64,000 nucleotides of DNA, taken from Candidatus Woesearchaeota archaeon. GTDB lineage: Archaea > Nanobdellota > Nanobdellia > SCGC-AAA011-G17 > GW2011-AR17. Made by a program: the position numbers and the translations under genes. Shown in pieces: positions 3,969 to 47,254 of the stretch. The first letter of the stretch is position 1; every line of letters starts with the position of its first letter. The stretch spans positions 24,536 through 88,535 of the forward strand of contig CAYPLB010000005.1 in the NCBI GenBank assembly GCA_964411565.1, read 5' to 3'. The notes beneath the pieces are model-generated. The model had not been told where the DNA came from. It saw nothing but the letters and a program-made list of their open reading frames with translations, and did not search any database.

Positions 3969-4000
3969 AATTTATAAATAGCAACTTCTTCTAAATATAT

Positions 4001-5773: not shown

Positions 5774-5843
5774 GAAAAGTACTTAAAGTTCGTCGACAAC
5801 TACTATTTAAAGTTAGGGAATACCTAGATTTTCGGAGACTGTT
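5774..5843. repeat. Intergenic repeat module R2, copy B
   Basis: Matches 3783-3852. Confidence 0.8.
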
Positions 5844-5845
5844 AG

Positions 5846-15974: not shown

Positions 15975-15975
15975 A

Positions 15976-16476
15976 ATGATAAAATATTGCCCTGATTATA
16001 TATTCAATTCAGTAAAGGATATCGATGAAAAAATATTAGAAAATAAAAAATTAATAATTTTTGATATAGATAACACCTTATTTTATCCAGAAACTACAAA
16101 TATTGATAAATCTATTATAAATTGGTATAAAAAATTCTCAAAAAAACACAAATCTATTTGTATTTCAAACTCAAAAACAATAAAACAAAGAGAAGCTGCA
16201 ATAAAAAAAGCAATTAATTGTGAACTTTTCATTACTGGATTAAGAAAACCTTCTAAAGAATTATTCAATAAAGTTACAAAAAATTACAAAGTTGAATCAA
16301 AAGATATTGTGACTATAGGGGATTTTTACTTTACAGATGTATTATTTGCAAAAAAAAATAATGCCACAGGAATATTAGTTAGACCTTTTGCTCCAAATGA
16401 AAATTTTTGGGTAAGCATAGGTAGACTTATAGACAATACAATAATAAACTTTTTAACTATATTCATGAAAAGATAA
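15976..16476 (+). CDS. HAD-superfamily phosphatase (YqeG-like)
   Basis: HAD motif I LIIFDIDNTLF; small size. Confidence 0.5.
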   Translation: MIKYCPDYIFNSVKDIDEKILENKKLIIFDIDNTLFYPETTNIDKSIINWYKKFSKKHKSICISNSKTIKQREAAIKKAINCELFITGLRKPSKELFNKVTKNYKVESKDIVTIGDFYFTDVLFAKKNNATGILVRPFAPNENFWVSIGRLIDNTIINFLTIFMKR

Positions 16477-16480
16477 GACT

Positions 16481-17164
16481 ATGAAAAACTTTGAATCAGA
16501 AATATTGGAAAAAATAGAATACACAGAAGATGTAATTTTACTTAAATTATCAACTCCAGAAGACTTTACTTTTGAAGCTGGACAATATATTAGCATAGAG
16601 ATAGAAAAAGACAATAAAAAAGAGTTGAAATGTTATTCATTATTGAATCCACCTTCAGAAAAAGGAATAACTCTTTGTATTAGATTAATTCCTGGTGGTT
16701 TTGCATCAGAATTCTTTAAAGAGGTAAAATCAGGAGATAAACTTTACGTTAAAGGTCCCTTAGGTTTCTTCAAATTCCAGGATAAAGAAGATATTGATGA
16801 ATTTTGTTTCTTAGCTGTTGGTACTGGTGTTGTTCCAATGATTTCAATGATAAAAGAGAATATTACTGAATATCCAAATAAAAAATTCACATTAATTGTT
16901 TCATATAAACTAAGAAAAAACATGTTAAATCATGAAGAATTATTAGAATTAGAGAAAAATAATAAAAACTTTGAATATCATCCTACTATTACTAGAGAAG
17001 AATGGGATGGTAAAAAAGGTAGAGTAACTTTACATTTACCTGAAGTAATAAAGAAAAAAGTGTTTTATATTTGTGGTCTAAAAGAAATGGTTATTGATAC
17101 AAGAAAGACTCTTATTGAGAGAGGTGTTGACCCAAAAGATATTAAACAAGAAAGGTTTTCATAA
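16481..17164 (+). CDS. FAD/NAD(P)-binding oxidoreductase (ferredoxin-NADP reductase-like fold)
   Basis: FAD-binding GQYISIEI, NAD-binding FLAVGTGVVPM, and a C-terminal YICGLKEM. Confidence 0.55.
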   Translation: MKNFESEILEKIEYTEDVILLKLSTPEDFTFEAGQYISIEIEKDNKKELKCYSLLNPPSEKGITLCIRLIPGGFASEFFKEVKSGDKLYVKGPLGFFKFQDKEDIDEFCFLAVGTGVVPMISMIKENITEYPNKKFTLIVSYKLRKNMLNHEELLELEKNNKNFEYHPTITREEWDGKKGRVTLHLPEVIKKKVFYICGLKEMVIDTRKTLIERGVDPKDIKQERFS

Positions 17165-28413: not shown

Positions 28414-29249
28414 TTTCTCAACCTCGCAATAAAAAATCCTATAGTATTTGTTTTATGTGGCCACAATCTTTTACAAAACTTCATATTTTTATCTAATTTC
28501 TTTCCAAATATATTAATCAGGCCATTATCTCCAATACAATCAATTTTCTCTAATTTAACATCAAAATTATCTAAAGCATATTGTATAACAAACTCATCTT
28601 CTTCTGGTTCTAAGGAACAAGTACTATAAACTAAAACTCCATCTTTATTCAACAAAGAAATAGCATGTCCAATAAATTCTTTTTGCAATTCACTTCTTTC
28701 TTCTACTCTTTTCAAATTATTCTTTCTCAACCAATTATTTTCCAGCATAAAATTACCAGAACATGGAGCATCTAATAAAATATAATCAAACTTTTTCTTC
28801 ACAGCTCTAAAATCCATCAAATAAGCAATACAATTATCAACTCCCAACCTTTCTAAGTTATTTTCTAAAACACTTAATCTTTCTGCTTTATTTTCTACAG
28901 CAACAACATCACAATACTCTGATAACTGACTTGTTTTACCTCCTGGAGCAGCACAAGCATCTAAAACCAAACCTTTAGGTTTCATAACTTCTACAGGGAT
29001 TTGTGTTGCTGCTTCTTGGATATAGAATAAACCTAACAAATACTCAGGACAACTCACTAAATTGAATCTAGAACTTTTTACATAAAATGCATTTTTCAAA
29101 AAAGGAACTTTTTCTAAAACAACCTTTCTCTTTTCTAACCTTTCTTTCAATTCATTGGGACTAATTTTCTTAGTATTAACTCTTATACATCTATCTAGCT
29201 TAACTACCTTCAAATCTCCGTCCATTTGCTTATATCTTTCCTTAAACAT
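28407..29249 (-). CDS. NOL1/NOP2/Sun family RNA cytosine-C5 methyltransferase
   Basis: SAM-binding DACAAPGGKT; catalytic VYSTCS. Confidence 0.75.
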   Translation of the reverse strand: MFKERYKQMDGDLKVVKLDRCIRVNTKKISPNELKERLEKRKVVLEKVPFLKNAFYVKSSRFNLVSCPEYLLGLFYIQEAATQIPVEVMKPKGLVLDACAAPGGKTSQLSEYCDVVAVENKAERLSVLENNLERLGVDNCIAYLMDFRAVKKKFDYILLDAPCSGNFMLENNWLRKNNLKRVEERSELQKEFIGHAISLLNKDGVLVYSTCSLEPEEDEFVIQYALDNFDVKLEKIDCIGDNGLINIFGKKLDKNMKFCKRLWPHKTNTIGFFIARLRKC

Positions 29250-30297
29250 CTTTTATCTCTATTTTTTGATCTTTTATACTATAACCTTTCTCAACGATCT
29301 CTTTATATTTCTTTTCTTTATACAAATCAAACAATTCTTGTATTATAATATAATTTTCATAGATCCAATCCCCAATTTTCCTTCCATCAACTATTTCTTT
29401 TTCGAATTCTACTAACTGTTTTTTTTGTTCTTCTAAGATAATATTTTGTTTATCGACTTTAGTTAATCTTTCACTATCTTCTCCTTCATCTAAATCTTCA
29501 ATAAAAGGAGTATAATAAACATCTAATGCTTCACTAAAACTATCAAATCTTTCACCTTTTCCTAAAGATTTCATTTCAAAAGGAACAGGTTCATTATTAA
29601 CAATATTTGCATTTTTCTTTTCACTCAAAATTTCATTTAATTTAACAAATAACTTTTTCAATTCTCTTGCCTCAACATTTTCTTGATTTTTATCTACTTT
29701 AGCTCTAAAACAAATTTCTTCAGCAAACATTCCACCTAAATTCAATGTTGCTAACTTTCTAACAATATCTTTTTTATCACTTTTTTCAATAAACAATGCA
29801 AACTCTTCAAAATCATTAAAATTAATTGGCTTTGATGGTGGATATAAATACTCAACTCTAGCCTTTATCTTTCTATCCTTCCATAATTGAACTTGTAAAG
29901 CAGAAATAATAGTATAATTTTCATCACAAAGAATAACATTCCCTTTAGAAAAAAATTCACAGACCATAATGAACTTATTTTCTTTTCCTTCAAAATGAAT
30001 TTCAATAATTCTTTCAAAATCTTTTTGTATAATCTTCCTAATTCTATTTCCACCAATTCTTTTCCTCAAAAACCTACAAAAGTTTATTATTAAATTTGGA
30101 CTCTTCCTTTTCTTCTTAGCAACATACAATCCAACTCCAGGAATAATTCTAATATGTTTTCTTCCAATTCCAGTTTTGTGAACAGTTAAAATAATTTCAG
30201 AATTATCTGGCTGATAAATTTTATCAACTCTTCCATCTATAAAAACCTGCAACTCATCTACAACAGCCTTTATCTCTAAAGAACTTAAAATTTTCAT
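29242..30297 (-). CDS. NFACT-N domain protein (truncated Rqc2/FbpA-like)
   Basis: N-terminal MKILSSLEIKAVVDELQ...GRVDKIYQP and FSKGNVILCDEN fit the NFACT-N pattern; only 351 aa against ~650 for full-length archaeal homologs. Confidence 0.5.
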   Translation of the reverse strand: MKILSSLEIKAVVDELQVFIDGRVDKIYQPDNSEIILTVHKTGIGRKHIRIIPGVGLYVAKKKRKSPNLIINFCRFLRKRIGGNRIRKIIQKDFERIIEIHFEGKENKFIMVCEFFSKGNVILCDENYTIISALQVQLWKDRKIKARVEYLYPPSKPINFNDFEEFALFIEKSDKKDIVRKLATLNLGGMFAEEICFRAKVDKNQENVEARELKKLFVKLNEILSEKKNANIVNNEPVPFEMKSLGKGERFDSFSEALDVYYTPFIEDLDEGEDSERLTKVDKQNIILEEQKKQLVEFEKEIVDGRKIGDWIYENYIIIQELFDLYKEKKYKEIVEKGYSIKDQKIEIKDV

Positions 30298-30327
30298 AAT
30301 AAAATAAAAGAAAAAGTAGGTTTAAAA
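30294..30327. repeat. 34-bp direct repeat copy A (TCATAATAAAATAAAAGAAAAAGTAGGTTTAAAAA)
   Basis: Perfect match to 31124-31157; the two copies bracket the gene at 30500-31129. Confidence 0.8.
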
Positions 30328-30421
30328 ATTTTTCTTATAATTCATACAATTCGTCAACAATATTAAATAGAATCTAGAAATGTTTAAATTCATCTTAATT
30401 TAATGTAAAAAAAATCAATTT

Positions 30422-30483
30422 TTCTTAATTATTAAGAAAATTCTATAAAAAAGCTTATAAATAAGCTATTACTAATTAGTAAT
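30422..30483. promoter_or_regulatory. Three consecutive inverted repeats upstream of ORF 30500 (candidate operator)
   Basis: TTCTTAAT-t-ATTAAGAA, AGCTTAT-aa-ATAAGCT and ATTACTAATTAGTAAT, all within the 60 bp before the GGAAG/ATG. Confidence 0.35.
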
Positions 30484-30499
30484 AACTAAAGGAAGAAAA

Positions 30500-31129
30500 A
30501 TGAAAACCGAAGAAAATACTAAAAGAGTAACAAGTTTTGTAGAACTTTGTGAAGAAATGATGGATATTGTTAAAGGCAAAGATAAATATAAATCTAGACT
30601 AGAAGAGATTTATTCTATTGATTTTTACTGGAAAAGTGAGTCTCTAAATAGAGAGATCAGAGAAATTAAAGAGAAATCTAGAGCAGAGAATACTTATAAT
30701 TTTGAATTAGGCTTTATTACTGAAGTTGTTTATGAAGGAAATAATACAGAATCAGTATTATGTCAACCAGATACAATTTTGCAGCTTAGAACTGAAAGAG
30801 AATCATCAGGATTAATTGGAAGAATAAGAATAAAACCACACAATGAAGAGTGCCTTTGGATAGGAATAGAAAAATTTCCACCAACATTATTTTCTAAAAG
30901 TGTTGAAAATATAAAAACTTTACATGGGTATAATTTTGATTTAACCTTAATTTCTAAAAATTATCCTATTACATTATATAAAGGTCTTAATCATTTAAAA
31001 GATACAACTATTGCTTCATTAGCACCTCATAGTTATATTATTGGCTATGATTCTGAAGAAGCAAGATTATCTCTTAGAAAAAGATTAGAGACAATTCCAA
31101 ATGATATTATTGAAAATTATTTGTCATAA
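30500..31129 (+). CDS. Hypothetical protein
   Basis: 209-aa ORF with an SD-like ggaag upstream. Confidence 0.5.
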   Translation: MKTEENTKRVTSFVELCEEMMDIVKGKDKYKSRLEEIYSIDFYWKSESLNREIREIKEKSRAENTYNFELGFITEVVYEGNNTESVLCQPDTILQLRTERESSGLIGRIRIKPHNEECLWIGIEKFPPTLFSKSVENIKTLHGYNFDLTLISKNYPITLYKGLNHLKDTTIASLAPHSYIIGYDSEEARLSLRKRLETIPNDIIENYLS

Positions 31130-31157
31130 TAAAATAAAAGAAAAAGTAGGTTTAAAA
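31124..31157. repeat. 34-bp direct repeat copy B
   Basis: Identical to 30294-30327. Confidence 0.8.
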
Positions 31158-31160
31158 ACC

Positions 31161-33531: not shown

Positions 33532-35037
33532 TTAATCCCAAAAGATTAACTTATCCCAAAAACTTTCTTCTTCTGGAGCATAACTAACTCCTGAACCTGA
33601 AACAGCACCACAATCTATTCCTGGAGCCCAATCACCAGAAAACTGACAATCTTCCATAGTGTAATCAGAATCACTTGTACTAAAACAAGCAAAGCCACCA
33701 CTATACTCACCTTCCTTCCAATTACTTAACATTTGAACAAGATAATCTATCTCAAAGCTACAATAATAATATGTACCTTCAAGTTCATCTAATTCTGCAT
33801 TTGAAAGGTCTTCAGCTTCTCTAATATCATCCTCACTTATTCCACTATCAATTAATTCTTGGATAAATTCCTCAGAAAAAGTTACTTCAAGACTATCACT
33901 TCTTGAATACAATCTACAAAGATCATCTGCTTCTTCTAACCAAATTGTTCCTGTTCCAGAGTTAATTGCTCCAGCAAATTCAAGTGTTTTAGTTTGTTCA
34001 AAACTTTTTTCATTACAGGTCTCAGCTGCATCAATAAAACAATCCCAATCTTCACATTCTGTACTTTCACTAATATCAGTACTTTCATCACAAAGAATTC
34101 TAATCATAATTGAATCTTCATCAAACCACTGAACATCAATATTAATTCCCTGAAATTCTTGATTATAATCTTCATTAATCTTCCCAGAATATCCATCTAC
34201 ATCAATCATAGCTAAACTAGAGTCATCAGGATCAAAGTTATAAAATGTTAAAGTTTTTCCTTCATACTCTAAAGAATCTCCTTCTAAAAAATGTAAATTT
34301 AAATCATTATCACATTCTACACAAGGAAAAGTTATATCTATTTCATTATTATCAATATCAAAATTTGCATCTATTCTTACTCCACCAAAAACACCTTGAT
34401 AATCATCTTCTATTTTAGCATTATAATCATCAACTCTTAGAGAAGCTAAATTATTTTCATAATTATAAAATGTCAGAATTTCTCCATAAATTTCAACAGA
34501 TTCAGCCTCAAATAAACTTACAACCTCATCACCACATTCACTTATTGTAGATATTATATCAAATTCCTCAGTCTCTTCCTCTTCACTTTCTTCTTCTACT
34601 TCTTCCTCAGTCTCTTCCTCTTCGATTTCATCTTCTACTTCTTCCTCAATCTCTTCCTCTTCGATTTCTTCTTCTACCTCTTCTTCAATAGATTCTTCTA
34701 CTTCTTCCTCAATCTCTTCCTCTTCTACTTCAATCTCTACAATTTCACAAACATTATTTACACATACAGGATCACTTGTAAATTCTACAGTTGATTCAAT
34801 ACAAACAACCTCATCTTCACATTCCCCTAAAGAATTATAATATTCTCGAAAATCAGAATTGATCACAACAATATCATTCCAATCTGTAAAAGGACAACAA
34901 GAATTGTCTACATAATCACAATCTTCATCAAATTCACACATTTGCATTTCTTCCATTGAATAAGGAATATCTTCTGTCTGACAACCTACTAATAATATAG
35001 AAATTATTATTAAAATTAATATTTTACCTCTTTTCAT
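33532..35037 (-). CDS. Lipoprotein with extended Glu-rich repeat region
   Basis: Lipobox LLVGC, many Cys, and (E/I/V)EEE repeats with DNA-level tandem repetition around 34540-34720. Confidence 0.55.
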   Translation of the reverse strand: MKRGKILILIIISILLVGCQTEDIPYSMEEMQMCEFDEDCDYVDNSCCPFTDWNDIVVINSDFREYYNSLGECEDEVVCIESTVEFTSDPVCVNNVCEIVEIEVEEEEIEEEVEESIEEEVEEEIEEEEIEEEVEDEIEEEETEEEVEEESEEEETEEFDIISTISECGDEVVSLFEAESVEIYGEILTFYNYENNLASLRVDDYNAKIEDDYQGVFGGVRIDANFDIDNNEIDITFPCVECDNDLNLHFLEGDSLEYEGKTLTFYNFDPDDSSLAMIDVDGYSGKINEDYNQEFQGINIDVQWFDEDSIMIRILCDESTDISESTECEDWDCFIDAAETCNEKSFEQTKTLEFAGAINSGTGTIWLEEADDLCRLYSRSDSLEVTFSEEFIQELIDSGISEDDIREAEDLSNAELDELEGTYYYCSFEIDYLVQMLSNWKEGEYSGGFACFSTSDSDYTMEDCQFSGDWAPGIDCGAVSGSGVSYAPEEESFWDKLIFWD

Positions 35038-35071: not shown

Positions 35072-36721
35072 TTATCTTCTTCCATATTGAGATCTATTTC
35101 CAAATCCACTAGATTTTTTATTAGATCTTCCACTAAAATTTGATCTTCCACTATTGCTTCTTGACCTATTTCCACTATTACTAAATCTTCCTTTAGGTCT
35201 ATTTCTAAATCCTTCACCAGAGTTTGAATTTCTGTTTCCGAATCCATTAGATCTATTATTATCTCTATTTCCATAGTTTGAATTTCTGTTTCCGAATCCA
35301 TTAGATCTATTACTATCCCTATTTCCATAGTTTGAATTTCTATTTCCAAATCCATTAGATCTATTATTATCTCTATTTCCAAAATTTGAATTTCTATTTC
35401 CACTATTACTAAATCTTCCTTTTGGTCTATTTCTAAATCCTTCACCAGAGTTTGAATTTCTGTTTCCAAATCCATTTGATCTTCCACTAAATCCTCTATT
35501 TCCAAAACCTCTTGCATTAGATCTTCCTCTACTTCCAAATCCAGAACTTCTTCCTCTTGATCTTCCACCGCCAGATCTTCTTCCATCATATCTCTGACCA
35601 GCATCAAACTGTACTTTAGGGAAACTTTCTAAATCTAATCTTTCAATCTTGATTCTATACCTTCTCTTAATTTCTCCAAAAGCATCATGATCTCTTCTAC
35701 TCAATAATGAAATAGCTTTTCCATATTCACCAGCCCTAGCAGTTCTTCCAATCCTATGAATATATTCTTCAGGATTTCTAGGCAAATCATAATTAAAAAC
35801 ATGACTAACATTTTTAATATCTAAACCTCTAGCTGCTACAGCAGATGCAACTAAAACTTCTTGCCTTCCATTATTAAAAGCTTCAATAACTTTCATTCTT
35901 CTATTTTGAGTTAAATCTCCATGGATCATATCTGCATCAATACCTTGTCTTCTCAAATTCTTAGTCAAAACATTTACAGTAGCTTTTGTTGAACAGAAAA
36001 TAATAACTCTATTTGTTTGTTCTTTACTTAACAAATGCATAAGATATGAAAATTTCTCATTTTGATTAATATCATAGTAAAATTGTTCTAACAAGTCTTC
36101 ATGAACTTGAGATTCTGCTTTTACAGTAACAGGTTTATTCATATGTCTTTGTTTGATATATTTAACTTCATTTGAAATTGTTGCTCCAAATAACAAAATT
36201 TGTCTATCTCTATTTGTACATTCTAAAATTCTATTAATATCATCAATAAAACCCATATCTACCATTTTATCTGCTTCATCAAGAACAAAGGTTTTCAATT
36301 TATTTAATTTTAAAGTACCTCTACCTAAGTGATCCAAAATTCTTCCTGGTGTACCAACTACAATTTCTGACCTAGCAATTTTATCCATTTGAGGTCCTAT
36401 AGCTACACCACCAAAAACAGTTGCAATTGAAAAATTAACATATTTTCCAAATTTACTCATTTCTTTTGAAATCTGAGAAGCTAATTCTCTTGTAGGAGCC
36501 ATAACTAAAACTTGTACTCCTTGCTTTTTAACAACATTCTCTAAAACAGGTACTCCAAATGCTAATGTTTTACCTGATCCAGTCTTTGAAATACCAATTA
36601 AATCTTTTCCTTCTTTTATTGTTGGTATAGATTTTTCTTGAATACCAGTTGGTTCTTTTATGTCTATTTCATCTAAAGCCCTTACTATATTAGGACTTAT
36701 ATTTAGTTCGCTAAATTTCAT
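35072..36721 (-). CDS. DEAD-box ATP-dependent RNA helicase with repetitive Gly/Arg/Asn-rich C-terminal tail
   Basis: Motifs GSGKTLAF, PTRELA, DEAD and HRIGRTARAG; C-terminal GFGNRNSN(Y/S)GNRD(N/S)NRSN repeats. Confidence 0.85.
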   Translation of the reverse strand: MKFSELNISPNIVRALDEIDIKEPTGIQEKSIPTIKEGKDLIGISKTGSGKTLAFGVPVLENVVKKQGVQVLVMAPTRELASQISKEMSKFGKYVNFSIATVFGGVAIGPQMDKIARSEIVVGTPGRILDHLGRGTLKLNKLKTFVLDEADKMVDMGFIDDINRILECTNRDRQILLFGATISNEVKYIKQRHMNKPVTVKAESQVHEDLLEQFYYDINQNEKFSYLMHLLSKEQTNRVIIFCSTKATVNVLTKNLRRQGIDADMIHGDLTQNRRMKVIEAFNNGRQEVLVASAVAARGLDIKNVSHVFNYDLPRNPEEYIHRIGRTARAGEYGKAISLLSRRDHDAFGEIKRRYRIKIERLDLESFPKVQFDAGQRYDGRRSGGGRSRGRSSGFGSRGRSNARGFGNRGFSGRSNGFGNRNSNSGEGFRNRPKGRFSNSGNRNSNFGNRDNNRSNGFGNRNSNYGNRDSNRSNGFGNRNSNYGNRDNNRSNGFGNRNSNSGEGFRNRPKGRFSNSGNRSRSNSGRSNFSGRSNKKSSGFGNRSQYGRR

Positions 36722-37390: not shown

Positions 37391-37540
37391 TGGGACCGCA
37401 GGGATTCGAACCCTGGACACCTAGATATCTGAGAACAGTTCAAATAAACAAATTCATTTGATCTTCAGTTTCACTATGCTATTTTAAGCAAACTAGTGCT
37501 CTCCCAGACTGAGCTACGGTTTAATGCTCTTTTAAGACCC
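37391..37540 (-). tRNA. Intron-containing tRNA (anticodon unresolved); a ~60-nt intron in the anticodon region and a probable second small intron after acceptor nt 3
   Basis: Minus strand reads ACCG-TA-GCTC-AGTCTGGGA-GAGC ... GTGTC-CAGGG-TTCGAAT-CCCTG-CGGTCCC-A. The 5' acceptor strand continues only as ACCG. The GGG needed to pair with the 3' CCC lies 17 nt upstream (GGG|tcttaaaagagcattaa|ACCG). Confidence 0.55.
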
Positions 37541-38331: not shown

Positions 38332-38436
38332 ATAACAATAAAATTAAAATAATTATATAAACTTCACGCGCACCCATGCCTTGTCCACACTAGAAATAAA
38401 AAAAACTTATAAACAAAAACATCCTTATAATCTAAC

Positions 38437-38904
38437 ATGAAATTAAAAAGAGTTAATTTCCCAAGAAAATATTTGTCTCCTTTATGGGAAATTTCTCTTG
38501 CATTAAAATCAAAAGTTTCTAAAAAATTAAAAATAGATCTTGATATAGAATATAAAGAATTAAGAACTGGTGATATAGTAGAATTAAAATCTGGAGATTT
38601 ATCAATTACAATAAAAACAATTAAACTTGGCATTTTTAGTGATACTAGATCTGTAGCTAGAATTAGACCAACAATTTTATGGAGAATAAGAATTACTGTT
38701 AAAAATTTAGATCAAATACAATTTGAAGAAGAAATTAGAGCTCCAATTAGCATTTCTAATCCAGATAATAAACAAGTTAGGGAAGCTGTTTTAAATGGTT
38801 TAAGGCCAAGAGGATTATCTACCTTTAGAGCTGCAAATACAGAGAAAAATATATTAAAAAATATCTTATCCGCAATTGCATCTGTTTCTAGACAAGCTGC
38901 ATAA
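38437..38904 (+). CDS. Hypothetical protein
   Basis: 155-aa ORF. Confidence 0.45.
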   Translation: MKLKRVNFPRKYLSPLWEISLALKSKVSKKLKIDLDIEYKELRTGDIVELKSGDLSITIKTIKLGIFSDTRSVARIRPTILWRIRITVKNLDQIQFEEEIRAPISISNPDNKQVREAVLNGLRPRGLSTFRAANTEKNILKNILSAIASVSRQAA

Positions 38905-38943: not shown

Positions 38944-39819
38944 ATGCAAAAAATGTCAAATACCAAATTCAAAGAATATGTAGAAAAAAAGGTAAGATCT
39001 ACAATTAGAAAGTACTCTCTTTTCAATCAAAAGGACAAAATTCTTGTTGCTGTTTCAGGAGGAAAAGATTCTACTGTTTGCCTTTATATTCTAAAAAAAT
39101 TAGGTTATGATGTTGAGGCTATTACAATTGATGCACAAATTGGTAACTATACAAAACAAAATTTAGAAAACATAAAATCTGTTTGTAAACAATATGAAGT
39201 TCCATTACATGTAATTTCTTTTAGAGAAGAATTTGGTTTCTCATTATGTTACATCAGATCACACTTAAAGTCCAAAGGTTACAATTATTCATCTTGTATG
39301 ATTTGTGGAATTCTAAAAAGATATTTACTAAACAAATATGCTAAAGAATTAAAAGCAAATTGTTTAGCAACGGGTCATAATTTAGATGATGAAGCTCAAA
39401 CAACATTAATGAATATTTTCCGAAATGATTTCCAAAGGTCAGAGAGACAAGGTGCAAAACCAGGTTTAATAAAAACAGAACAATTTGTACAAAGAGTAAA
39501 ACCTTTATACTTAATCTCAGAAGAAGAAGCAAAAAAATATTCACAATTAATGGAGTTCCCTGTTAATTACGATATTTGTCCATGTTCTGTTTCAGCTTAC
39601 AGACGACAATTCATAAAAATATTAAATACTTTCGAAGAAAAACATCCTTCTGTAAAATACAACATTGTAAAATTCAATGAATCAATGAAATCAAATTTAA
39701 AAGAAAAAGAAGAACAAGTTATTGAAACCTGTGAATCTTGTGGAGAACCTTCTAGTAACAAATTATGTAAAGCTTGTATTATAATTAACGAAATGAAAAA
39801 AGAAAAAACTAAAGATTAA
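38944..39819 (+). CDS. PP-loop ATPase of the TtcA/TtuA/Ncs6 tRNA-thiolation family
   Basis: PP-loop VAVSGGKDSTV; C-terminal CESCGE...CKAC zinc ribbon; internal CMICG. Confidence 0.65.
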   Translation: MQKMSNTKFKEYVEKKVRSTIRKYSLFNQKDKILVAVSGGKDSTVCLYILKKLGYDVEAITIDAQIGNYTKQNLENIKSVCKQYEVPLHVISFREEFGFSLCYIRSHLKSKGYNYSSCMICGILKRYLLNKYAKELKANCLATGHNLDDEAQTTLMNIFRNDFQRSERQGAKPGLIKTEQFVQRVKPLYLISEEEAKKYSQLMEFPVNYDICPCSVSAYRRQFIKILNTFEEKHPSVKYNIVKFNESMKSNLKEKEEQVIETCESCGEPSSNKLCKACIIINEMKKEKTKD

Positions 39820-40120
39820 TTCCTTTCAATTTATGTATTAATAAACTTTTATAGACTGTTCTTAAAGGTACTTCAGATTCATTTATTTCATCATTACTTG
39901 GAAAAACAAATTCTCTATTTCTATTAATCTCAATTAATTCTGATGTAACTGAACCAATCATTGGTGCACCTGCTCCTGTGCTATAAATTTCTCCAGTATA
40001 ATTGTCATACCATAATGTAATAGTAGATTTACCATCATCAACTACAGTATTTTCTGTCATATTTCTTAAAATTTCTGGCAAATTTTCAACATTTCTTTGA
40101 ATTATATTCCAATATTCCAT
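39809..40120 (-). CDS. Hypothetical protein
   Basis: 103-aa ORF. Confidence 0.35.
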   Translation of the reverse strand: MEYWNIIQRNVENLPEILRNMTENTVVDDGKSTITLWYDNYTGEIYSTGAGAPMIGSVTSELIEINRNREFVFPSNDEINESEVPLRTVYKSLLIHKLKGINL

Positions 40121-40146
40121 CTTAAGAAAACAAAAAAAACAATTGT

Positions 40147-40416
40147 TTATAAAATTTTTGAATTTCTAATAAGATCAATAAATCTTCTTAAAAAAGTATT
40201 TCCTTCATTAACTTTAGCAGATAACTCTTCCCTAATAACTTCACTTCTTTCAAAAATAACTCCAATATCACTTGGATTAATATACCAAACACTATAACAT
40301 CCTTTAGAACCAACTAACAATAGACCATCATTAATATAAGCTTTATCTCCAGCAACTAAACTGGCATAATAATCAATATCTTTTTTCTTTTCAGGACTAA
40401 ATTCTTCATATCTCAT
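40147..40416 (-). CDS. Hypothetical protein
   Basis: 89-aa ORF. Confidence 0.35.
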   Translation of the reverse strand: MRYEEFSPEKKKDIDYYASLVAGDKAYINDGLLLVGSKGCYSVWYINPSDIGVIFERSEVIREELSAKVNEGNTFLRRFIDLIRNSKIL

Positions 40417-41918
40417 TTAACAAGTTTCCCAGCATCTTCAAACTTAATTCTACCTTTCATCAACTTATCAAGAACTTCTAATAATTCATTTTCTTTAACT
40501 CTTATTTGTTTTGTAGAATCTCTATCTCTAATTGTAACACCTTCATCAAAATCCACTGTAACACAATAAGGAACACCTTGTTCATCTGCTCTTGCATACC
40601 TTCTTCCTACAGAACCTGACTTATCATAAAAAGAAACAAAATCTTTCCTCAAAGAATCATATACTTTCATTCCTTTCTCATTAACTTTATTTACTAAAGG
40701 AAGCACAGCAACTTTTATTGGAGCTAAATCTTTATTTAACTTCAAAACGACATTTCCTCTTTTCTTATCATCAGTATAAGCATCAAATAACAAAGCTAAA
40801 AATACTCTTTCCATTCCAAATGTTGGCTCAATAACTCTAGGAATAACTTTCTTTTTACTTGCTTCATCAAACAACTCCATCCTCTGTTTAGAAAACTTAG
40901 CATGTTGATTTAAATCATACTGTCCTCTATTTGCATTACCAGCAATTTCTTTACTTCCAAAAGGAAAACTATAATCAAAATCTAAAGTTGCAGACGAATA
41001 ATGTGACAATTCTGTATTAACATGTTCTCTAACCTTCAGATTCTTTCCTGACAATCCAATACTCATGAACCAGAAATATTGTTCAGCTAACCAATAAGCA
41101 TGCCACTCTCCCAACATTTTCTTCTTAATCATATCTTTAATTGTCATTTCAGTTAAATCTTTTTTACCTTTATCCTGAGTTTTTGCAGTTAAAACATTTA
41201 ATTTTAAATTCAAATGCTCTTTTGTTAACCAACTACATTTTTTTTCATCAGGATGTATAAAATACTCAAATTCTCCAATATGAAACTCTCTACATCTAAA
41301 CAAAAAATCTCTTGCAGAAATTTCATTTCTAAAACATCTACCAACTTGTGCAATACCAAATGGCAATTTTACTCTAGAGGTTTCAACAATTTGCTTATAA
41401 TCCATAAAAATTCCTTGAGCAGTTTCTCCTCTCAAATAAGCTTCAGCACTTGTATCTTCACTAGCACCAACTTTTGTAGGAAATAACAAATTAAAATCTT
41501 TCATTTCTTTAAATTTACCTTTACATGAAGGACAAACTAAATTATGTTTTTTTATCAAATCGTTAATTGCAGGAATATCTAAACCATCTGCAACAGTATC
41601 TAATTGTTCTTCAATAAAATGATCAGCTCTATGTTTTGTTTTACACTTTGCACAAACTAACAATAAATCTCCAAATGAATCTAAGTGTCCTGAAGCTTTC
41701 CATGTATCAGGATGTGAAATAATACTTGCATCAATTCCAACCATATCCATTCTATCTTGTACAAAATATTTCCAAAAATTTGCTTTCAAAGCATTAAACA
41801 TCTCAATACCTAATGGACCAAAATCAAAGAACCCAGAATATCCACCATAAATATCAGAACTTCTATAAACAAAACCTTTCTTCTTACAAAAAGCAGCCAT
41901 TTCTTCTATCTTTAACAT
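40413..41918 (-). CDS. glyS: Glycyl-tRNA synthetase (archaeal/eukaryotic alpha2 type)
   Basis: N-terminal KKGFVYRSSDIYGGYSGFFDFGPLG is typical of class II GlyRS. Confidence 0.85.
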   Translation of the reverse strand: MLKIEEMAAFCKKKGFVYRSSDIYGGYSGFFDFGPLGIEMFNALKANFWKYFVQDRMDMVGIDASIISHPDTWKASGHLDSFGDLLLVCAKCKTKHRADHFIEEQLDTVADGLDIPAINDLIKKHNLVCPSCKGKFKEMKDFNLLFPTKVGASEDTSAEAYLRGETAQGIFMDYKQIVETSRVKLPFGIAQVGRCFRNEISARDFLFRCREFHIGEFEYFIHPDEKKCSWLTKEHLNLKLNVLTAKTQDKGKKDLTEMTIKDMIKKKMLGEWHAYWLAEQYFWFMSIGLSGKNLKVREHVNTELSHYSSATLDFDYSFPFGSKEIAGNANRGQYDLNQHAKFSKQRMELFDEASKKKVIPRVIEPTFGMERVFLALLFDAYTDDKKRGNVVLKLNKDLAPIKVAVLPLVNKVNEKGMKVYDSLRKDFVSFYDKSGSVGRRYARADEQGVPYCVTVDFDEGVTIRDRDSTKQIRVKENELLEVLDKLMKGRIKFEDAGKLVK

Positions 41919-41929
41919 TACTATAATTA

Positions 41930-41965
41930 TTATCCTAACATTTTTATACTTTTCTACAATTCTTA
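41930..41965. repeat. 36-bp direct repeat copy A flanking the vapBC cassette
   Basis: ATTATCCTAACATTTTTATACTTTTCTACAATTCTT is identical to 42644-42679 (coordinates +/-1). Confidence 0.8.
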
Positions 41966-42376
41966 CAATATAAATTCTATAATTTCTCTAGTGTTTAGAA
42001 CTTTAATTTCACCTTGATTTTTAAGATTTTTATCATCTGACCAAATAATACTATCTGTATAAGCTAAGGCACAAGCAAAAAATATAACATCATTTTTGTC
42101 AATATCCTTGACAATTTTTAAGGCATTATTTTTATAAGGATAAAGAACCTCATTTGGAATGATTAAAACTTTATTTAATATTATTTTCAAAAGTTCATTA
42201 AAATCTTTCTCTGACATTTTTGATTTCTTCAAGATTAGGTTTTTATGTTTTTCCATTTCCTCAAAAATAAATTCAGGAAAAAGAAAATAATCTTCATATT
42301 CTAAAATAAGTTGCCTAGTTATTGAATCTTTAATTAATGCTGAAAATAAAATATTTGAATCAATAATTATCTTCAT
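41963..42376 (-). CDS. vapC: PIN-domain toxin VapC
   Basis: MKIIIDSNILFSAL with the N-terminal PIN acidic residue; 4-bp overlap with the upstream antitoxin gene. Confidence 0.75.
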   Translation of the reverse strand: MKIIIDSNILFSALIKDSITRQLILEYEDYFLFPEFIFEEMEKHKNLILKKSKMSEKDFNELLKIILNKVLIIPNEVLYPYKNNALKIVKDIDKNDVIFFACALAYTDSIIWSDDKNLKNQGEIKVLNTREIIEFIL

Positions 42377-42594
42377 GCAAGAAACCTCTTATTTGCTTCT
42401 AACTTTATTATTTTATTAAATTCCTCCACATCTTTTTTAGTAAGTTTACTTTTACTTGCTAATTTTTCAGCTAAACGCAAAGTTTCAAGTTTTTGTATAA
42501 TAGCTTTTCTTGCAACTTTACTCCATCTTATTTCTGAAAAATGTTTCATTTCTTCATGTACTTCCTTTGGTATTGATAATGTCATGTTTCCCAT
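42373..42594 (-). CDS. vapB: VapB-family antitoxin (small DNA-binding protein)
   Basis: 73-aa ORF translationally coupled to vapC; N-terminal MTLSIPKEVHEEMK is strand-helix-like. Confidence 0.55.
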   Translation of the reverse strand: MGNMTLSIPKEVHEEMKHFSEIRWSKVARKAIIQKLETLRLAEKLASKSKLTKKDVEEFNKIIKLEANKRFLA

Positions 42595-42643
42595 TTTATT
42601 TCACCTTACTTAAATATGTGGTTACACATATATAAAGTTTTCT

Positions 42644-42679
42644 ATTATCCTAACATTTTTATACTTTTCTACAATTCTT
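42644..42679. repeat. 36-bp direct repeat copy B
   Basis: Identical to 41930-41965; ends 6 bp before the ATG of the deaminase gene. Confidence 0.8.
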
Positions 42680-42685
42680 TTATTC

Positions 42686-43150
42686 ATGAGAACTCTTCCA
42701 ATTGAAGAAAACCAAGAATATATTCAAGAAGCTATTGAGGAAGCAAAGAAATCTCCTTGTTTAAGATCAAAATGTGGTTCTATAATTGTTAAAGATGGAG
42801 CAATCATTGGCAGAGGATTTAATTCTCCTCCAAATAATAAAGATTTAGAAACTTGCAGAAAGGATTCACTTCCAAAAGATTTCAAATCAGATAAAACTTG
42901 TTGCCTCCATGCAGAGCAGAGAGCTATCTTAGATGCATTAAAAAATAATTCAAATAAACTCAAAGGTTCCACTTTATTCTTCATTAGATTGGATTTAAAC
43001 AACAATATACTTTATGCTGGAGAACCTTATTGTACAATTTGCAGCAAAATGGCTTTAGATGTAAAAATTAAAGAATTTGTTTTATACCACAAAGATAATT
43101 TAACAGCTTATGACACAGAAGAATACAACGAACTTTCTTTCAAACATTAA
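42686..43150 (+). CDS. CMP/dCMP (cytidine/deoxycytidylate) deaminase family protein
   Basis: Zinc-binding CLHAEQRAI and PYCTICSKM motifs. Confidence 0.7.
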   Translation: MRTLPIEENQEYIQEAIEEAKKSPCLRSKCGSIIVKDGAIIGRGFNSPPNNKDLETCRKDSLPKDFKSDKTCCLHAEQRAILDALKNNSNKLKGSTLFFIRLDLNNNILYAGEPYCTICSKMALDVKIKEFVLYHKDNLTAYDTEEYNELSFKH

Positions 43151-43739
43151 AGTTTTCATATTTCAATTCAAACCCATAAATTTCTTCAAAATTTTTCTCA
43201 AATTCTTCTTTATTATCTCCTAAATTCCTAATTAGTTTCAACAATTTATCCTTACCATATTTATCGACTAAAAATTCAACAGCAAAACCAGATTCTCTAT
43301 AAACATACTTACTTTTTTCCCCATAAAACTCTAAAAAATCTTCAAACTTCAAAGGTCTCTCTCTTGTTTTAATTTGATCAGAAACAAATAATGCTGTACC
43401 TTCCCATAACCAATCTGGCTCAGACCTATATTTAGATAACTTTAAAAAATAACAATGAGATAATTCATGTTTAATTAATTTCTTATACTCATCCTCAGAA
43501 TATCTATGACAACTTTCCTTCTCGTAATTTTTAGAATCTAAGGCATAAATTTTATTTTTACTTATCCATCCTACCATCCAATCTTCAGTTTTTTTACCTA
43601 TTAACTCGTCTATAGTCTTTCTATCAGGTACAATAACTAACTCAGGTAAATTTTCAACCCAATTAATTTCAAAAAATTTATTTAGTTCATTTATTGATTT
43701 CCTAAAAACCTCATTAACATCCATAAAAATAAATAACAA
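43140..43739 (-). CDS. Hypothetical protein with HExxH motif (possible zinc metallopeptidase)
   Basis: LIKHELSHCYF. Confidence 0.4.
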   Translation of the reverse strand: MLFIFMDVNEVFRKSINELNKFFEINWVENLPELVIVPDRKTIDELIGKKTEDWMVGWISKNKIYALDSKNYEKESCHRYSEDEYKKLIKHELSHCYFLKLSKYRSEPDWLWEGTALFVSDQIKTRERPLKFEDFLEFYGEKSKYVYRESGFAVEFLVDKYGKDKLLKLIRNLGDNKEEFEKNFEEIYGFELKYENFNV

Positions 43740-45527: not shown

Positions 45528-45544
45528 CTGATTTATAAATTTTA

Positions 45545-47254
45545 TTACTTCTCAGAATTCATTTCCAACAAATGTTTCAAATGCTTCTTTTTTATTTTTC
45601 TCAAAGCCTTAGGATCATCCATAAATTTCTCTAACAACTGTGCAACACTCTCTCCAGACATAATTGCTGGAATAATAACATAATCAGCACCTGCATCATA
45701 TAGATCTAATGCTTCTTCCATTGTAATTGCAGTAACAAATGTTAAAGCCCTTGATTTAACTTGTCTCAAATATAATAACAATCTAAGATTATCTTGTGCA
45801 TTAGGTATTGCAGAAATTATAAACTTAGCATGATCAAAATTAATATGTTTTAAAATTTCATGATTAGTCATATCTCCATAAAATGAAGGTATCTTTCTCT
45901 TCCTTAAATCCTCAATTACTTCTGGATCAAAATCAACAACTAAAAGATGTCTTTTTACTCTTTTCAAAGATCTCAAAAACATTTCCCCCATTTTACCTGA
46001 ACCAAAAAGTAATACTTTTTTCTTACTTCTAGTATGAGCAAAATCTTTATCTCTTTTTGTCAATGAAAGCTTTTCTAAATAAGCTAATATAGGGATTAAT
46101 TTATTATAGAAAAACATTTCATATTTCATAATATAAGATGTCCCTACTATTGTAATAATTGCCAATAGAATTGTAATTGTAAATAATTCTTGTGAGATAT
46201 TACTTACACCCATTACTAAAATAAGACTAAATTCACTAATTTGACTTAGGGATACAGCAGAAGCAAAACTATTTCTTTTATCATATCCCATTATACTCAA
46301 AATTATCAAAATAATCAAAGGTTTTATTATCAAAACAACTCCTAACAAAATTAACAAAGGTTGAATTATTGCTAAAATATCAGTAAGAACTAACTGTAAT
46401 CCTAAAGATACAAAAAATATCGTTGCAAAAAAATCTTTTAGCGACATCATACTTCCAATTATATTAGTACTATAAGGTAAATTCGCTAAAGTAATTCCTC
46501 CAAAGAAAGCACCCATTGCAATAGAATAACCAAATAGATATACTAACAATGCAAACAAGAAACAAAATGCTACTGCCATTAACAACAATAACTCATTTGA
46601 CTTTGCTGCAGATCTAAACATTCTAAAAGCCAGAAACCTATTGAAAAGATAAGCAATTACTGCTAATATTAAAAATTTACCTAGAAGAGGTAAAATATTT
46701 ACAATTGTAAATTCACTTGTTCCCATAAAAATTGTCAAAGCTAAAACAACTAAAACATCTTGTACAAACAAAATACCTAAAATAATTCTTCCGTGCAATG
46801 TATTCAACTCATTTTCATCAAATAACAGCTTAATTACAACCATAGTACTACTAAATGCTACTATTAGCCCTGCATAAATAGAATTTAATTGAGAGAATCC
46901 CAACCAATTAGCGATAAAAAATCCTGAAAGAAAAGTTAATCCAACCTGTAGAGTACCAGTAATAATTGTTGCCCACCCTACACTTTTTAATTTTCTTAGA
47001 TCTAATTCTAAACCTACAATAAACAATAAAAACATAATTCCCAATTCAGAAATAATATTTATAATTTCAACATCATGAATTAATCCAAAACCTACAGGAC
47101 CAAGTATTAAACCTGCAATAATATAAGCAGGAATTAATGGCTGTCTAAATAATCTAATAACATAAGCAGCAAAAGCTGCAACTATCAAAATTAAACCTAA
47201 GTCTATTAACAAACCTTCCGGAGTTGTTAGAAGACCTTGTATCACCTCTAACAT
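45545..47254 (-). CDS. kefB: CPA2-family K+/H+ antiporter with C-terminal TrkA-N (RCK) domain
   Basis: About 12 TM helices, then Rossmann LLFGSGKMG. Confidence 0.75.
   Translation of the reverse strand: MLEVIQGLLTTPEGLLIDLGLILIVAAFAAYVIRLFRQPLIPAYIIAGLILGPVGFGLIHDVEIINIISELGIMFLLFIVGLELDLRKLKSVGWATIITGTLQVGLTFLSGFFIANWLGFSQLNSIYAGLIVAFSSTMVVIKLLFDENELNTLHGRIILGILFVQDVLVVLALTIFMGTSEFTIVNILPLLGKFLILAVIAYLFNRFLAFRMFRSAAKSNELLLLMAVAFCFLFALLVYLFGYSIAMGAFFGGITLANLPYSTNIIGSMMSLKDFFATIFFVSLGLQLVLTDILAIIQPLLILLGVVLIIKPLIILIILSIMGYDKRNSFASAVSLSQISEFSLILVMGVSNISQELFTITILLAIITIVGTSYIMKYEMFFYNKLIPILAYLEKLSLTKRDKDFAHTRSKKKVLLFGSGKMGEMFLRSLKRVKRHLLVVDFDPEVIEDLRKRKIPSFYGDMTNHEILKHINFDHAKFIISAIPNAQDNLRLLLYLRQVKSRALTFVTAITMEEALDLYDAGADYVIIPAIMSGESVAQLLEKFMDDPKALRKIKKKHLKHLLEMNSEK

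Follow-up and report, generated by a model that had tools for sequence, protein, structure and literature searches.

A vapBC toxin-antitoxin unit in the genome of a Candidatus Woesearchaeota archaeon is bracketed by two perfect 37-nt direct repeats, and each repeat copy carries a TATA box suitably placed for a neighboring gene, glyS on one side and a dCMP-deaminase-family gene on the other. The best explanation, which we regard as probable, is that insertion of vapBC into a 52-nt spacer duplicated the 37-nt target promoter and left glyS and the deaminase gene with one copy each. As part of the same explanation, the 37-mer, comprising BRE, TATA box, and flanks, would be the core promoter from which a leaderless glyS mRNA was first transcribed. 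Coordinates of the features are collected in Table 1, where the window is the whole 64-kb stretch of DNA that was analyzed. The host is a tiny marine archaeon for which oxygen-minimum-zone metagenomes and metatranscriptomes exist.

Table 1. Positions of the insertions, repeats, and neighboring genes in the window
Feature	Positions	Strand	Description
Second case, repeat copy A	30294..30328		TATA box (TTTTTAAA on the minus strand) through ATGA of the NFACT_N gene (29242-30297, minus strand)
Second case, insert	30329..31123	+	795 bp; orphan ORF 30500-31129, 209 aa
Second case, repeat copy B	31124..31158		Last sense codon and stop of ORF 30500; no downstream gene served
glyS	40413..41918	-	Glycine-tRNA ligase, 501 aa, essential; NCBIfam PRK04173 at 1e-162
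Repeat copy 1	41928..41964		37 nt; core promoter, now that of glyS; TATA box 41941-41948
vapC	41963..42376	-	PIN_2-domain predicted toxin, 137 aa; Pfam PF10130 at 5.6e-27
Inserted vapBC segment	41965..42642	-	678 bp between the repeats; absent from sister species
vapB	42373..42594	-	Ribbon-helix-helix antitoxin, 73 aa; 4-nt overlap with vapC
vapBC control region	42595..42642	-	48 nt upstream of vapB; own BRE/TATA, palindrome, GGTGA ribosome-binding site
Repeat copy 2	42643..42679		Identical to copy 1; TATA box 42656-42663
Deaminase insert	42680..43145	+	Lineage-specific; carries dCMP-deaminase-family ORF 42686-43150
Peptidase_MA_2 gene	43140..43724	-	Stop here replaced by insert-derived GTT TGA
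Third case, empty site	45534..45571		Single copy in the window; sister species has an HD-domain gene there

The first-pass annotation had described a perfect 36-bp repeat; the exact pair is confirmed, but the repeat extends one T further 5', to 37 nt, and its start coordinate had been off by one. The 36-mer occurs exactly twice in the 64-kb window (41929-41964 and 42644-42679), where no third copy is found with up to three mismatches, and it has no match in 100 dinucleotide-preserving shuffles. The glyS ATG (41918, minus strand) is 10 nt away from the start of copy 1, whose other end takes in the final two bases of the vapC stop codon (41963-41965). Copy 2 stops 6 nt short of the deaminase ATG (42686), and both placements agree with those originally given. 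The TATA box of copy 1 (TTTTTATA on the plus strand, TATAAAAA on the minus strand) lies 22 nt from the glyS ATG, and that of copy 2 lies 22 nt from the deaminase ATG on the plus strand and faces into vapBC on the minus strand. Upstream of the 68 long ORFs in the window, TATA hexamers are most frequent at offsets of -30 to -28 relative to the ATG, these three positions accounting for 40 matches, and the spacing of the repeat's TATA box to glyS and to the deaminase gene, on opposite strands, is that typical of the window's genes. The vapBC segment is 100% identical in eight independently assembled full-span contigs from different samples, which speaks against an assembly artefact; two further, shorter contigs cover the segment only in part and were left out of the eight.

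Everything needed for a transcription unit lies within the inserted segment, which begins with the BRE and closes on the first base of the vapC stop, a codon (T/AA) that spans the junction with copy 1. Its GC content is 0.24, versus 0.285 for the window. The copies had been said to enclose only vapB and vapC, and these do form an overlapping pair, but a control region with its own promoter is enclosed as well. This promoter consists of a BRE-like GAAAAC and TTTATATA (42629-42636), and an inverted-repeat search finds the palindrome ATATGTG-N4-CACATAT (42614-42631) between the TATA box and the ribosome-binding site, a candidate VapB operator. The control module of BRE/TATA, palindrome, and ribosome-binding site is kept upstream of homologous vapB genes in three unrelated contigs (L098, L101, and L095).

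The gene identities proposed at first pass stand: PIN_2 for VapC (5.6e-27), RHH_12/VapB for the antitoxin, glycine-tRNA ligase for glyS (1e-162), and dCMP_cyt_deam_1 for the deaminase ORF (6e-15). VapC is full length, and when it is aligned with nine homologues, the acidic residues D6, E40, D93, D96, and D115 are present in all 10 sequences; its family is very common in DPANN archaea, with 502 relatives below 1e-10. VapB is assigned to RHH_12 (PF26688) by precomputed annotation on identical products; it matches the NCBIfam VapB model weakly, at 9e-6 and below the cut-off, and has no match in the local Pfam copy. With a ribbon-helix-helix antitoxin preceding a PIN toxin, the 4-nt overlap, and a candidate operator palindrome overlapping the promoter, the module itself differs, in its sequence features, in nothing from type II VapBC and looks like an ordinary family member. 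We rejected long flanking repeats as a trait of the vapBC family: around homologous cassettes (L095, L098, L101, and L107) the best repeat is a 15-nt consensus promoter match, with nothing longer, and the repeat is therefore not a property of the family.

In two sister species (L012, and the species of L011 and L109-L116), the peptidase stop, one promoter copy, and glyS follow each other with nothing between. Their glyS is about 91% identical in nucleotide sequence, with GlyRS orthologues 93 to 94% identical in amino acids in L011 and L012, and both vapBC and the deaminase gene are absent. There, the peptidase_MA stop TAG is followed directly by TAGAAAAGTATAAAAATGTTAG(G/A)ATAAT, 10 nt, and the glyS ATG. 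The glyS promoter is the target of the proposed insertion, and homology with the sister species breaks at 43146 and 41956. The ancestral portion of the 37-mer amounts to 28/37 nt, and another 8 nt (AAGAATTG) come from the deaminase side. Because these 8 nt, which adjoin the deaminase gene and are absent from the relatives, occur in both copies, the deaminase probably arrived first and vapBC second; arrival of vapBC first, with later gene conversion of the 8 flanking nt, is a possible alternative order. The upstream DNA brought by the deaminase insert comes to 14 nt, the 8 within copy 2 and 6 outside the repeat. At its far end, the last deaminase codon and stop fall in the antisense of the peptidase gene's end, and the deaminase C terminus is the shortest among its homologues.

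The idea of an insertion that duplicated a shared promoter is thereby supported, but with the qualification that the promoter was shared only after the earlier deaminase insertion, since the sister species lack both inserts. For the same reason the empty site that had been expected, with one 37-mer between glyS and the deaminase gene, does not appear in them. No collection searched contains this intermediate, whose junction on the plus strand would read AACATTACTATAAT-TATTATCCTAACATTTTTATACTTTTCTACAATTCTT-TTATTCATGAGAAC, and a metagenome scan with the deaminase returned relatives of at most 66% identity in unrelated contexts, with no intermediate state. The presence of vapBC with both repeat copies in all relatives had been named as the mark of an ancient arrangement; the sister species are without vapBC. 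Exact-protein look-ups with GlyRS, VapC, and NFACT_N recover only the same near-clonal population, at least 99.75% identical, in which the vapBC and ORF-30500 inserts are fixed, so that an empty site within the species does not exist.

No outgroup sharing synteny was found, as two distant glyS loci, L013 and L014, lack synteny and are hence unusable as such, and the three lineages stand at almost equal distances from each other. We therefore infer a gain here, not a loss in the relatives, by parsimony and junction anatomy only. The glyS promoter is under strong purifying selection, with 27 to 28 of 28 nt kept between species, so the perfect identity of the copies alone gives no date for the event. 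The flanking genes have orthologues of 85 to 94%, whereas, among 5.8 billion proteins, the nearest relative of VapC outside its own population reaches 72% and the next-best protein to the deaminase 69%. No donor was found for either protein, both being singletons in protein searches, and scans of the inserted genes for defense-system and phage families give only generic dCMP-deaminase and HD-domain matches.

The same pattern recurs in this lineage. A 34-bp repeat had been pointed out around ORF 30500; the pattern is indeed the same, with an empty site in relatives, but the repeat, which is perfect, measures 35 nt. ORF 30500 is antisense to the duplicated NFACT_N promoter and has no homologue among 1.84 billion representatives. 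Five contigs of the relatives (L109-L113) have the exact empty site, with a single repeat copy and no insert. As one of the 35-nt copies serves no gene, the duplication is a by-product of insertion, not a product of selection only. The third case is an HD-domain gene of a sister species, whose product matches PF01966 and which lies between 40-nt perfect repeats (L109, 5984-6023 and 6589-6628); L012 holds an eroded remnant of this cassette. Together, the exact empty site of ORF 30500 and this third case bear out the earlier suggestion of a common mechanism. The three repeat sequences are unrelated, being respectively the glyS promoter, the NFACT promoter plus start codon, and the end of a Na+/H+ exchanger gene plus TATA, and each of the three duplications, of 37, 35, and 40 nt, contains a TATA box.

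Other gene-sized differences, in the window (39801-40414 and 38408-38902) and in L109 (3823-4259, 6989-7751, and 8477-9286), have no long repeat and 0 to 12 nt of ambiguous overlap. Since most other gene-sized indels are thus without a long repeat, repeat-flanked insertion is one route among several. Repeats flanking deaminase homologues (L064/L065, L088, and L092) were set aside as a different phenomenon, comprising a multi-copy element, terminator hairpins, and a contig-end repeat.

The arrangement had also been called a textbook insertion, a description that does not fit: a 37-bp duplication exceeds by far what ordinary transposons leave, and inverted ends and a mobility gene are missing. 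In end-to-end alignments for terminal inverted repeats, the vapBC, deaminase, and ORF-30500 inserts score no differently from shuffled sequence. The score of 18 for the HD insert is also unconvincing, since shuffles have a 95th percentile of 17 and a maximum of 22. No insert contains an integrase or transposase ORF, and no integrase or recombinase lies beside one. The only family-matching ORFs of the vapBC insert are vapB and vapC, and the other inserts carry one gene each, with no mobility domain. On these grounds we rejected a transposon, insertion sequence, or MITE (no transposase, no terminal inverted repeats, an insert that is single copy in the window), an integrase-type element (no tyrosine or serine recombinase in or beside the inserts, and promoters, not tRNA genes, as targets), and an integron cassette (no inverted repeat near the vapC 3' end, and cassettes isolated between housekeeping genes). 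Viral contigs contain no relative of ORF 30500 or VapC.

The course of events that follows is built on what was observed: the repeat, the promoter geometry, relatives with one copy and no insert, further cases of the same kind, and inserts free of transposon features. The deaminase gene would first have entered between the peptidase stop and the glyS promoter, so placed that the TATA box of glyS, read on the opposite strand, also lay 22 nt from the deaminase ATG and the promoter became bidirectional. The vapBC transcription unit would then have entered the 52-nt spacer and duplicated 37 nt of target, so that glyS and the deaminase gene would each retain an intact promoter copy. In insertions of this kind the two joints would lie 35 to 40 bp apart on the target, the interval being present at both sides of the insert. 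The mechanism we prefer is illegitimate or short-microhomology end joining. The joining may have taken place at a break whose long staggered ends were then filled in, or the two joints may have formed on different sister copies of the chromosome, one on each. Because spacers in this genome are 30 to 50 nt long, selection would retain only events that spare the neighboring promoters and reading frames.

The same event may instead have come about by replicative template switching (microhomology-mediated break-induced replication), to which we grant a minor but real chance. A fork stalled at the promoter would copy foreign vapBC, return 37 nt behind its point of departure, and copy the promoter again. 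An insert with a flanking duplication of variable length follows naturally from such a process, and the junctions permit short ambiguous overlaps: the AA of the vapC stop codon, ATAATA before GAAAC (which the homologous cassette of L098 has upstream as well), TCATAA where ORF 30500 ends, and ATTAA where the deaminase ends. However, these putative microhomologies are short and lie in 72% A+T sequence, and several junctions have no clear microhomology. Return points chosen at random should also scatter more widely than the lengths of 35, 37, and 40 nt, unless selection narrowed the range.

More speculatively, and with a rather low probability, gene capture in DPANN archaea whose intergenic spacers are very short may follow a dedicated route tied to promoters. 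Incoming DNA would join at two nicks flanking the promoter-bound initiation complex, or through an unrecognised integrase, and about 35 to 40 bp with the TATA box would always be duplicated, so that the new gene acquires a promoter at no cost to the resident genes. The TATA box is the element on which all three duplications overlap, and the fact that one duplication has no gene to serve suggests that mechanism, and not selection alone, is at work.

We consider it unlikely that the present arrangement is ancestral, in the sense that an ancestor had the deaminase gene, a promoter, vapBC, and a second promoter copy, and that the sister species lost vapBC and then the deaminase gene. In its favor, recombination between the 37-nt repeats would cut out the insert precisely, the HD-domain remnant of L012 shows that deletions erode such cassettes, there is no outgroup to polarise the change, and the promoter is conserved enough for identical copies to be old. 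Loss of the deaminase gene, however, would have to restore a peptidase stop abutting the promoter exactly, in two lineages, and the deaminase borrows C-terminal residues and its stop from the peptidase antisense strand, which has the look of an insertion joint. With lineages nearly equidistant, a single gain is no less parsimonious than one loss or two, and the repeat would still need an insertion-coupled duplication, merely at an earlier time.

Archaeal integrases leave identical direct repeats of 35 to 45 bp at attL and attR, a range into which the repeat length falls. A circular vapBC element that already carried the 37-mer, entering by attP x attB recombination with an integrase acting in trans or by a single homologous crossover, would account for such a repeat, and re-entry by this path would be open to a circle that had been excised at this locus in a different strain. 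We think this very improbable: none of the three inserts has an integrase within or beside it, three unrelated repeats would need three att specificities, and viral contigs are without a related vapC or ORF-30500 locus. Moreover, 28 of the 37 nt belong to the resident chromosome and 8 come from the deaminase insert, which is unexpected on incoming DNA. That there was no insertion-coupled duplication, the 37-mers being maintained independently (as a co-regulation motif or by gene conversion) or assembled in error, is scarcely credible, for although a strong BRE/TATA consensus is common to the genome's promoters, the 37/37 identity includes non-consensus flanks, the sequence has no further copy in 64 kb at three mismatches and one copy in relatives, and the eight assemblies agree over a repeat shorter than the usual assembly k-mers that cause collapse or chimera.

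Our preferred reading, insertion with duplication of the target promoter, is closest among known kinds of event to the insertion with long target duplication of bacterial restriction-modification genes (Nobusato et al. 2000, Gene 259:99; Furuta et al. 2010, NAR, PMC2853133). Those bacterial cases have repeats of >30 bp, an empty site in a relative, and no mobility genes, and the repeat is unique in the genome. Their duplications, which measure 46 to about 420 bp, frequently include the start or stop of translation of a neighboring gene, so that the neighbors are left intact (PMC2853133). The authors tied these insertions to DNA breakage by the restriction-modification enzymes, and no archaeal case passed their screen (PMC2853133). 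The present cases share the repeats of >30 bp at start and stop sites, the empty site in relatives, and the lack of integrase, transposase, and inverted ends; in the 64-kb window, the vapBC-flanking repeat has its two copies and no other at up to three mismatches. The empty site is exact for the ORF-30500 and HD-domain cases, and for vapBC the relatives hold a single copy of 28/37 nt. They differ in their DPANN host, in their cargo (vapBC with its predicted RNase-type toxin, an orphan gene, and an HD-domain gene), and in that all duplications are of 35 to 40 nt and each contains a TATA box. Literature searches found no archaeal or DPANN precedent for insertion with long target duplication.

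Transposons and insertion sequences likewise leave the target sequence directly duplicated on both sides of the insert, with ordinary transposon duplications far shorter than 37 bp. IS1634 makes longer target duplications than IS1630. Those of IS1630, from Mycoplasma, are of 19 to 26 bp (PMC2853133). In contrast to such elements, the inserts described here are unrelated to each other, carry single-copy cargo, and have neither transposase nor terminal inverted repeats. The attL and attR sites of integrase-mediated integration are also perfect direct repeats of a few tens of base pairs around acquired DNA, but here there is no integrase and no tRNA target, the three repeats are unrelated, and the inserts are of only 0.57 to 0.8 kb. 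PeSL cassettes of T4-type phages reportedly share a consensus motif at many sites and act through homologous recombination. Like these cassettes and phage "morons," the inserts are single genes with their own expression signals between conserved genes, and in PeSL systems variable genes are bordered by recurring promoter sequences through which they can be gained and lost; here, however, each repeat is a local, unique target duplication. In CRISPR spacer integration, an integrase reaction, Cas1-Cas2 makes two attacks about 30 to 37 bp apart and the interval is duplicated (PMC4872114). The resemblance is in geometry only, as no CRISPR array, leader, or cas genes are seen here, the inserts are of hundreds of base pairs, and the target sequences differ.

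The spacers of streamlined archaeal genomes are almost only promoter, and how such genomes take up single genes without wrecking essential neighbors was unclear. The three events offer one answer, namely that the promoter is copied in the course of the insertion. With them, the range of insertion with long target duplication grows to include Archaea, cargo that does not cut DNA, and addiction-type toxin-antitoxin modules, and the nature of this cargo weakens the idea that its own nuclease causes the event. The duplicated promoters predict that one copy would fire antisense into vapC. They also predict precise excision by recombination between the repeats, which would give the circular junction ATATATAAAGTTTTC-37-mer-ACAATATAAATTCTATAA and which the toxin-antitoxin pair would resist.

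The 36-bp direct repeat that the first-pass annotation placed around a vapBC cassette, between glyS and a dCMP-deaminase gene, occurs exactly twice in the window (41929-41964 and 42644-42679). One extra T lengthens the match to a perfect 37-nt repeat with a spacing of 715 nt, and no third copy of the 36-mer is found in the window at up to 3 mismatches (0 in 100 shuffles). As that annotation described, the glyS-side copy (copy 1) reaches the vapC stop codon, whose last two bases it contains, and the deaminase-side copy (copy 2) ends 6 bp before the deaminase ATG. The arrangement is real, as 8 contigs from independent assemblies of different samples span the whole repeat-vapBC segment and are 100% identical there; two further, shorter contigs cover it only in part and were left out of the 8.

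Positions of repeats, inserts and associated signals (window coordinates unless a locus of another genome, L109 or L011, is named)
Feature	Coordinates	Strand	Remarks
Direct repeat copy 1	41928-41964		starts 10 nt from glyS start codon (41918, minus strand)
TATA box, copy 1	41941-41948
vapC	41963-42376	minus	PIN_2 protein (5.6e-27), full length
vapB	42373-42594		RHH_12/VapB-like antitoxin; 4-nt overlap with vapC
Direct repeat copy 2	42643-42679		ends ahead of deaminase ATG at 42686
TATA box, copy 2	42656-42663
35-nt repeat, copies A and B	30294-30328, 31124-31158		perfect
Second insert	30329-31123 (ORF 30500-31129)		795 bp; orphan gene, 209 aa, antisense to duplicated promoter
HD-domain insert with repeats	L109 5984-6628; L011 367-1011
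Empty site for HD-domain gene	45534-45571		single copy
Deaminase ORF, vapC stop codon, ends of ORF 30500 and HD-domain ORF	42686-43150, 41963-41965, 31124-31129; L109 6589-6615

The product of glyS is a glycine-tRNA ligase (1e-162), and the gene divergent from it encodes a protein of the dCMP-deaminase family whose zinc motifs are intact. The vapBC module is in itself ordinary, and alignment shows the acidic residues of VapC to be invariant among homologues. The 48-nt region 5' of vapB (GAAAAC-TTTATATA-TGTG-TAAC-CACATAT...GGTGA...ATG) comprises a BRE/TATA element, a palindrome and a ribosome-binding site. This module is also found ahead of homologous vapB genes on unrelated DPANN contigs, so the insert is a complete transcription unit, its first base lying exactly at its own BRE. 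The G+C content of the window is 28.5%, and among named genomes the nearest come from marine archaea of DPANN type, labelled Nanoarchaeota or 'archaeon'.

Ahead of the 68 long ORFs of the window, TATA-like hexamers cluster at positions -30 to -28 relative to the ATG, with 40 hits over the three offsets; such a peak is the signature of leaderless transcripts. Judged by its sequence, the 37-nt repeat is a core promoter. Its TATA box lies 22 nt from the ATG of both glyS (minus strand) and the deaminase gene (plus strand), and thus one TATA box served both genes before the duplication. The 22 nt between the deaminase start codon and the older glyS TATA box are made up of 14 insert-borne and 8 resident nucleotides; upon deaminase insertion, a unidirectional glyS promoter would have become a mirror-symmetric bidirectional one (window 41918-42686; compare L012, from one sister species, 4963-5003).

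Sister genomes were identified by a GlyRS scan of species-representative genomes, yielding L011 and L012 (93-94% amino acid identity), and a peptidase_MA search added numerous contigs from the same species as L011 (L109-L116). All sister loci share one order: the stop TAG of the peptidase gene that lies beyond the deaminase in the window, AAAAGTATAAAAATGTTAG(G/A)ATAAT, 10 nt, and the glyS ATG. Window positions 41957-43145 (1189 bp, comprising the deaminase gene, promoter copy 2 and vapBC) have no counterpart in L011, L012 or L109-L116. The ancestral glyS promoter accounts for 28 of the 37 repeat nucleotides, and one more is part of the 10-nt stretch ahead of the ATG. The other eight (AAGAATTG) are missing in relatives, adjoin the deaminase gene and are present in both copies. 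As both copies carry them, the simplest history would be that the deaminase gene inserted first and vapBC second, with the 37-nt duplication; insertion of vapBC first, followed by gene conversion, is a possible alternative for the same eight nucleotides. The single-copy site between glyS and the deaminase gene that the first-pass annotation anticipated was not found, all contigs with identical GlyRS, VapC or deaminase being filled, and no relatives of the deaminase or VapC at 72-100% identity occur among 5.8 billion proteins. The annotation's proposal of insertion with promoter duplication is supported, with a revised history whose intermediate was not observed.

The three lineages are nearly equidistant (glyS 90.7-92.2% nucleotide identity) and synteny at the locus is absent in the more distant genomes examined, so polarity derives from parsimony and the joints. 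The deaminase C-terminus is the shortest among homologues, its final codon and stop coming from the antisense of the end of the minus-strand peptidase_MA_2 gene, which has lost TAG and gained GTT TGA; both ends resemble joints left by an insertion and not the scars of a deletion. In either direction, a duplication of resident sequence that encloses foreign genes must have come about together with an insertion.

Homologous deaminase genes also lie between repeats in unrelated DPANN or CPR-like contigs, suggesting that this gene may often be mobile. Those repeats were rejected as the same phenomenon, being a three-copy ~100-nt element beside a transposase (L064/L065, 2372-4145), a 66-nt contig-end repeat (L092, 1827 and 3969) and identical 30-nt terminator hairpins (L088, 94 and 954).

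A similar pattern, noted earlier for a 34-bp repeat around ORF 30500, holds. The repeat is 35 nt long and runs from the TATA box through the ATGA of the NFACT_N gene, the minus-strand neighbour. The empty site in the sister species is exact (GAGTAAGG-[one copy]-AAATTTT, no intervening sequence), and both window copies carry an extra T compared with it. Apart from itself, ORF 30500 lacks homologues in a set of 1.84 billion protein representatives. Pfam, NCBIfam and PHROG gave no match to it and PADLOC only one hit below threshold (E 0.006), and the ORF is fixed across every contig of the population. As copy B has no gene to serve, this duplication arose as a by-product of insertion and was not required by selection.

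A third case runs in the opposite direction: L109 and L011 have 40-nt perfect repeats around a 0.57-kb insert (565 bp between copies) with an HD-domain gene, of which L012 retains only deletion remnants, and the window has the empty site. This repeat consists of the final 27 nt of a Na+/H+ exchanger gene and the TATA box of the next gene. Relative to the downstream start codon, the three duplications span -46 to -10, -31 to +4 and -62 to -23, and intersect at the TATA box. Each of the four inserted ORFs (deaminase, vapC, ORF 30500 and HD-domain) has its stop codon inside the adjoining target or repeat sequence or across its edge, up to nine final codons of the HD-domain ORF also falling within it, and insert boundaries lie at or just inside each gene's 3' end. 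The cause may be microhomology where A+T-rich sequence resembles stop codons, or donor fragments the size of a gene.

No long repeat accompanies most of the other gene-sized differences between these genomes, so promoter-duplicating insertion is one route among several. Directly after glyS lies a pair of small orphan ORFs (39801-40414; 89 and 103 aa), the first starting in an ATGA shared with the stop codon of glyS. The pair is absent in both sister species and has no flanking repeat, which indicates lineage-specific insertion by a different route. Segments at 33538-34746 (~1.2 kb) and 38408-38902 (~0.5 kb) are likewise lineage-specific, missing in the sister species and free of flanking long repeats, and, conversely, the L109 species has extra genes of 131, 192 and 262 aa (L109 3823-4259, 6989-7751 and 8477-9286). 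Single small genes between conserved neighbours thus show high turnover. In-frame long tandem repeats (window 34525-34743 and 35093-35583; L109 ~15900-16630; periods 12/15 nt and 54 nt) encode acidic and Gly/Asn/Arg/Ser-rich low-complexity sequence and vary in copy number among the window, L109, L110 and L012.

Three tandem Fic/DOC-domain genes (1617-2627, 2848-3783 and 4001-5008) occupy a region (1617-5850) with two further perfect repeats, R1 (81 nt, at 2611 and 4992, across the 3' ends of two paralogues) and R2 (54 nt, at 3799 and 5790). Repeats and genes interleave (R1, gene, R2, gene, R1, gene, R2), a pattern that suggests duplicated or converted toxin-like cassettes.

The inserts carry no terminal inverted repeats, recombinase or transposase, their sites lie outside tRNA genes, the three repeat sequences are mutually unrelated, no relatives were found in viral contigs, and homologous vapBC units elsewhere lack long flanking repeats. 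These features rule out an ordinary transposon, MITE, integrase element or integron cassette as a description. Separately, a 126-nt tRNA-model match (37395-37520, minus strand), just above the gathering score and not reported by ARAGORN, is probably an intron-containing archaeal tRNA.

The closest known kind is insertion with long target duplication, as defined by Furuta et al. 2010 (PMC2853133) and Nobusato et al. 2000. The repeats on either side of such units exceed 30 bp (46-47 bp to ~420 bp) and occur once at the empty site of a relative. Mobility genes are absent, and a start or stop site is often included in the repeat, which leaves neighbouring genes intact (PMC2853133). The mechanism is unknown and has been tentatively linked to DNA breakage by carried restriction enzymes, and no archaeal case passed that screen (PMC2853133). 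The present events fit this kind, yet they come from another domain of life, carry other cargo, have core promoters as their target and fall in a narrow size range. Full-text literature searches found no archaeal or toxin-antitoxin precedent.

We favor a mechanism in which a short foreign duplex would be joined without a transposase, the two joints lying 35-40 bp apart on the target. Joining could occur at a staggered break followed by fill-in, or, in a polyploid cell, with the joints on two sister copies, and selection would then purge events harming a promoter or reading frame. Replicative template switching deserves to be taken seriously as a less likely alternative; possible 2-6-nt overlaps at some joints fit it, but these are putative and confirmation would need donor sequences. 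A promoter-complex-guided or enzyme-measured reaction would be the most unusual route and has a low probability.

The repeats would permit precise excision, a loss that the toxin-antitoxin pair would counter-select, and copy 1 may drive antisense transcription of vapC and copy 2 read-through into vapBC. What stands out is the recurrence of insertions that duplicate a promoter; they are a variant of a kind that is known but still unexplained.
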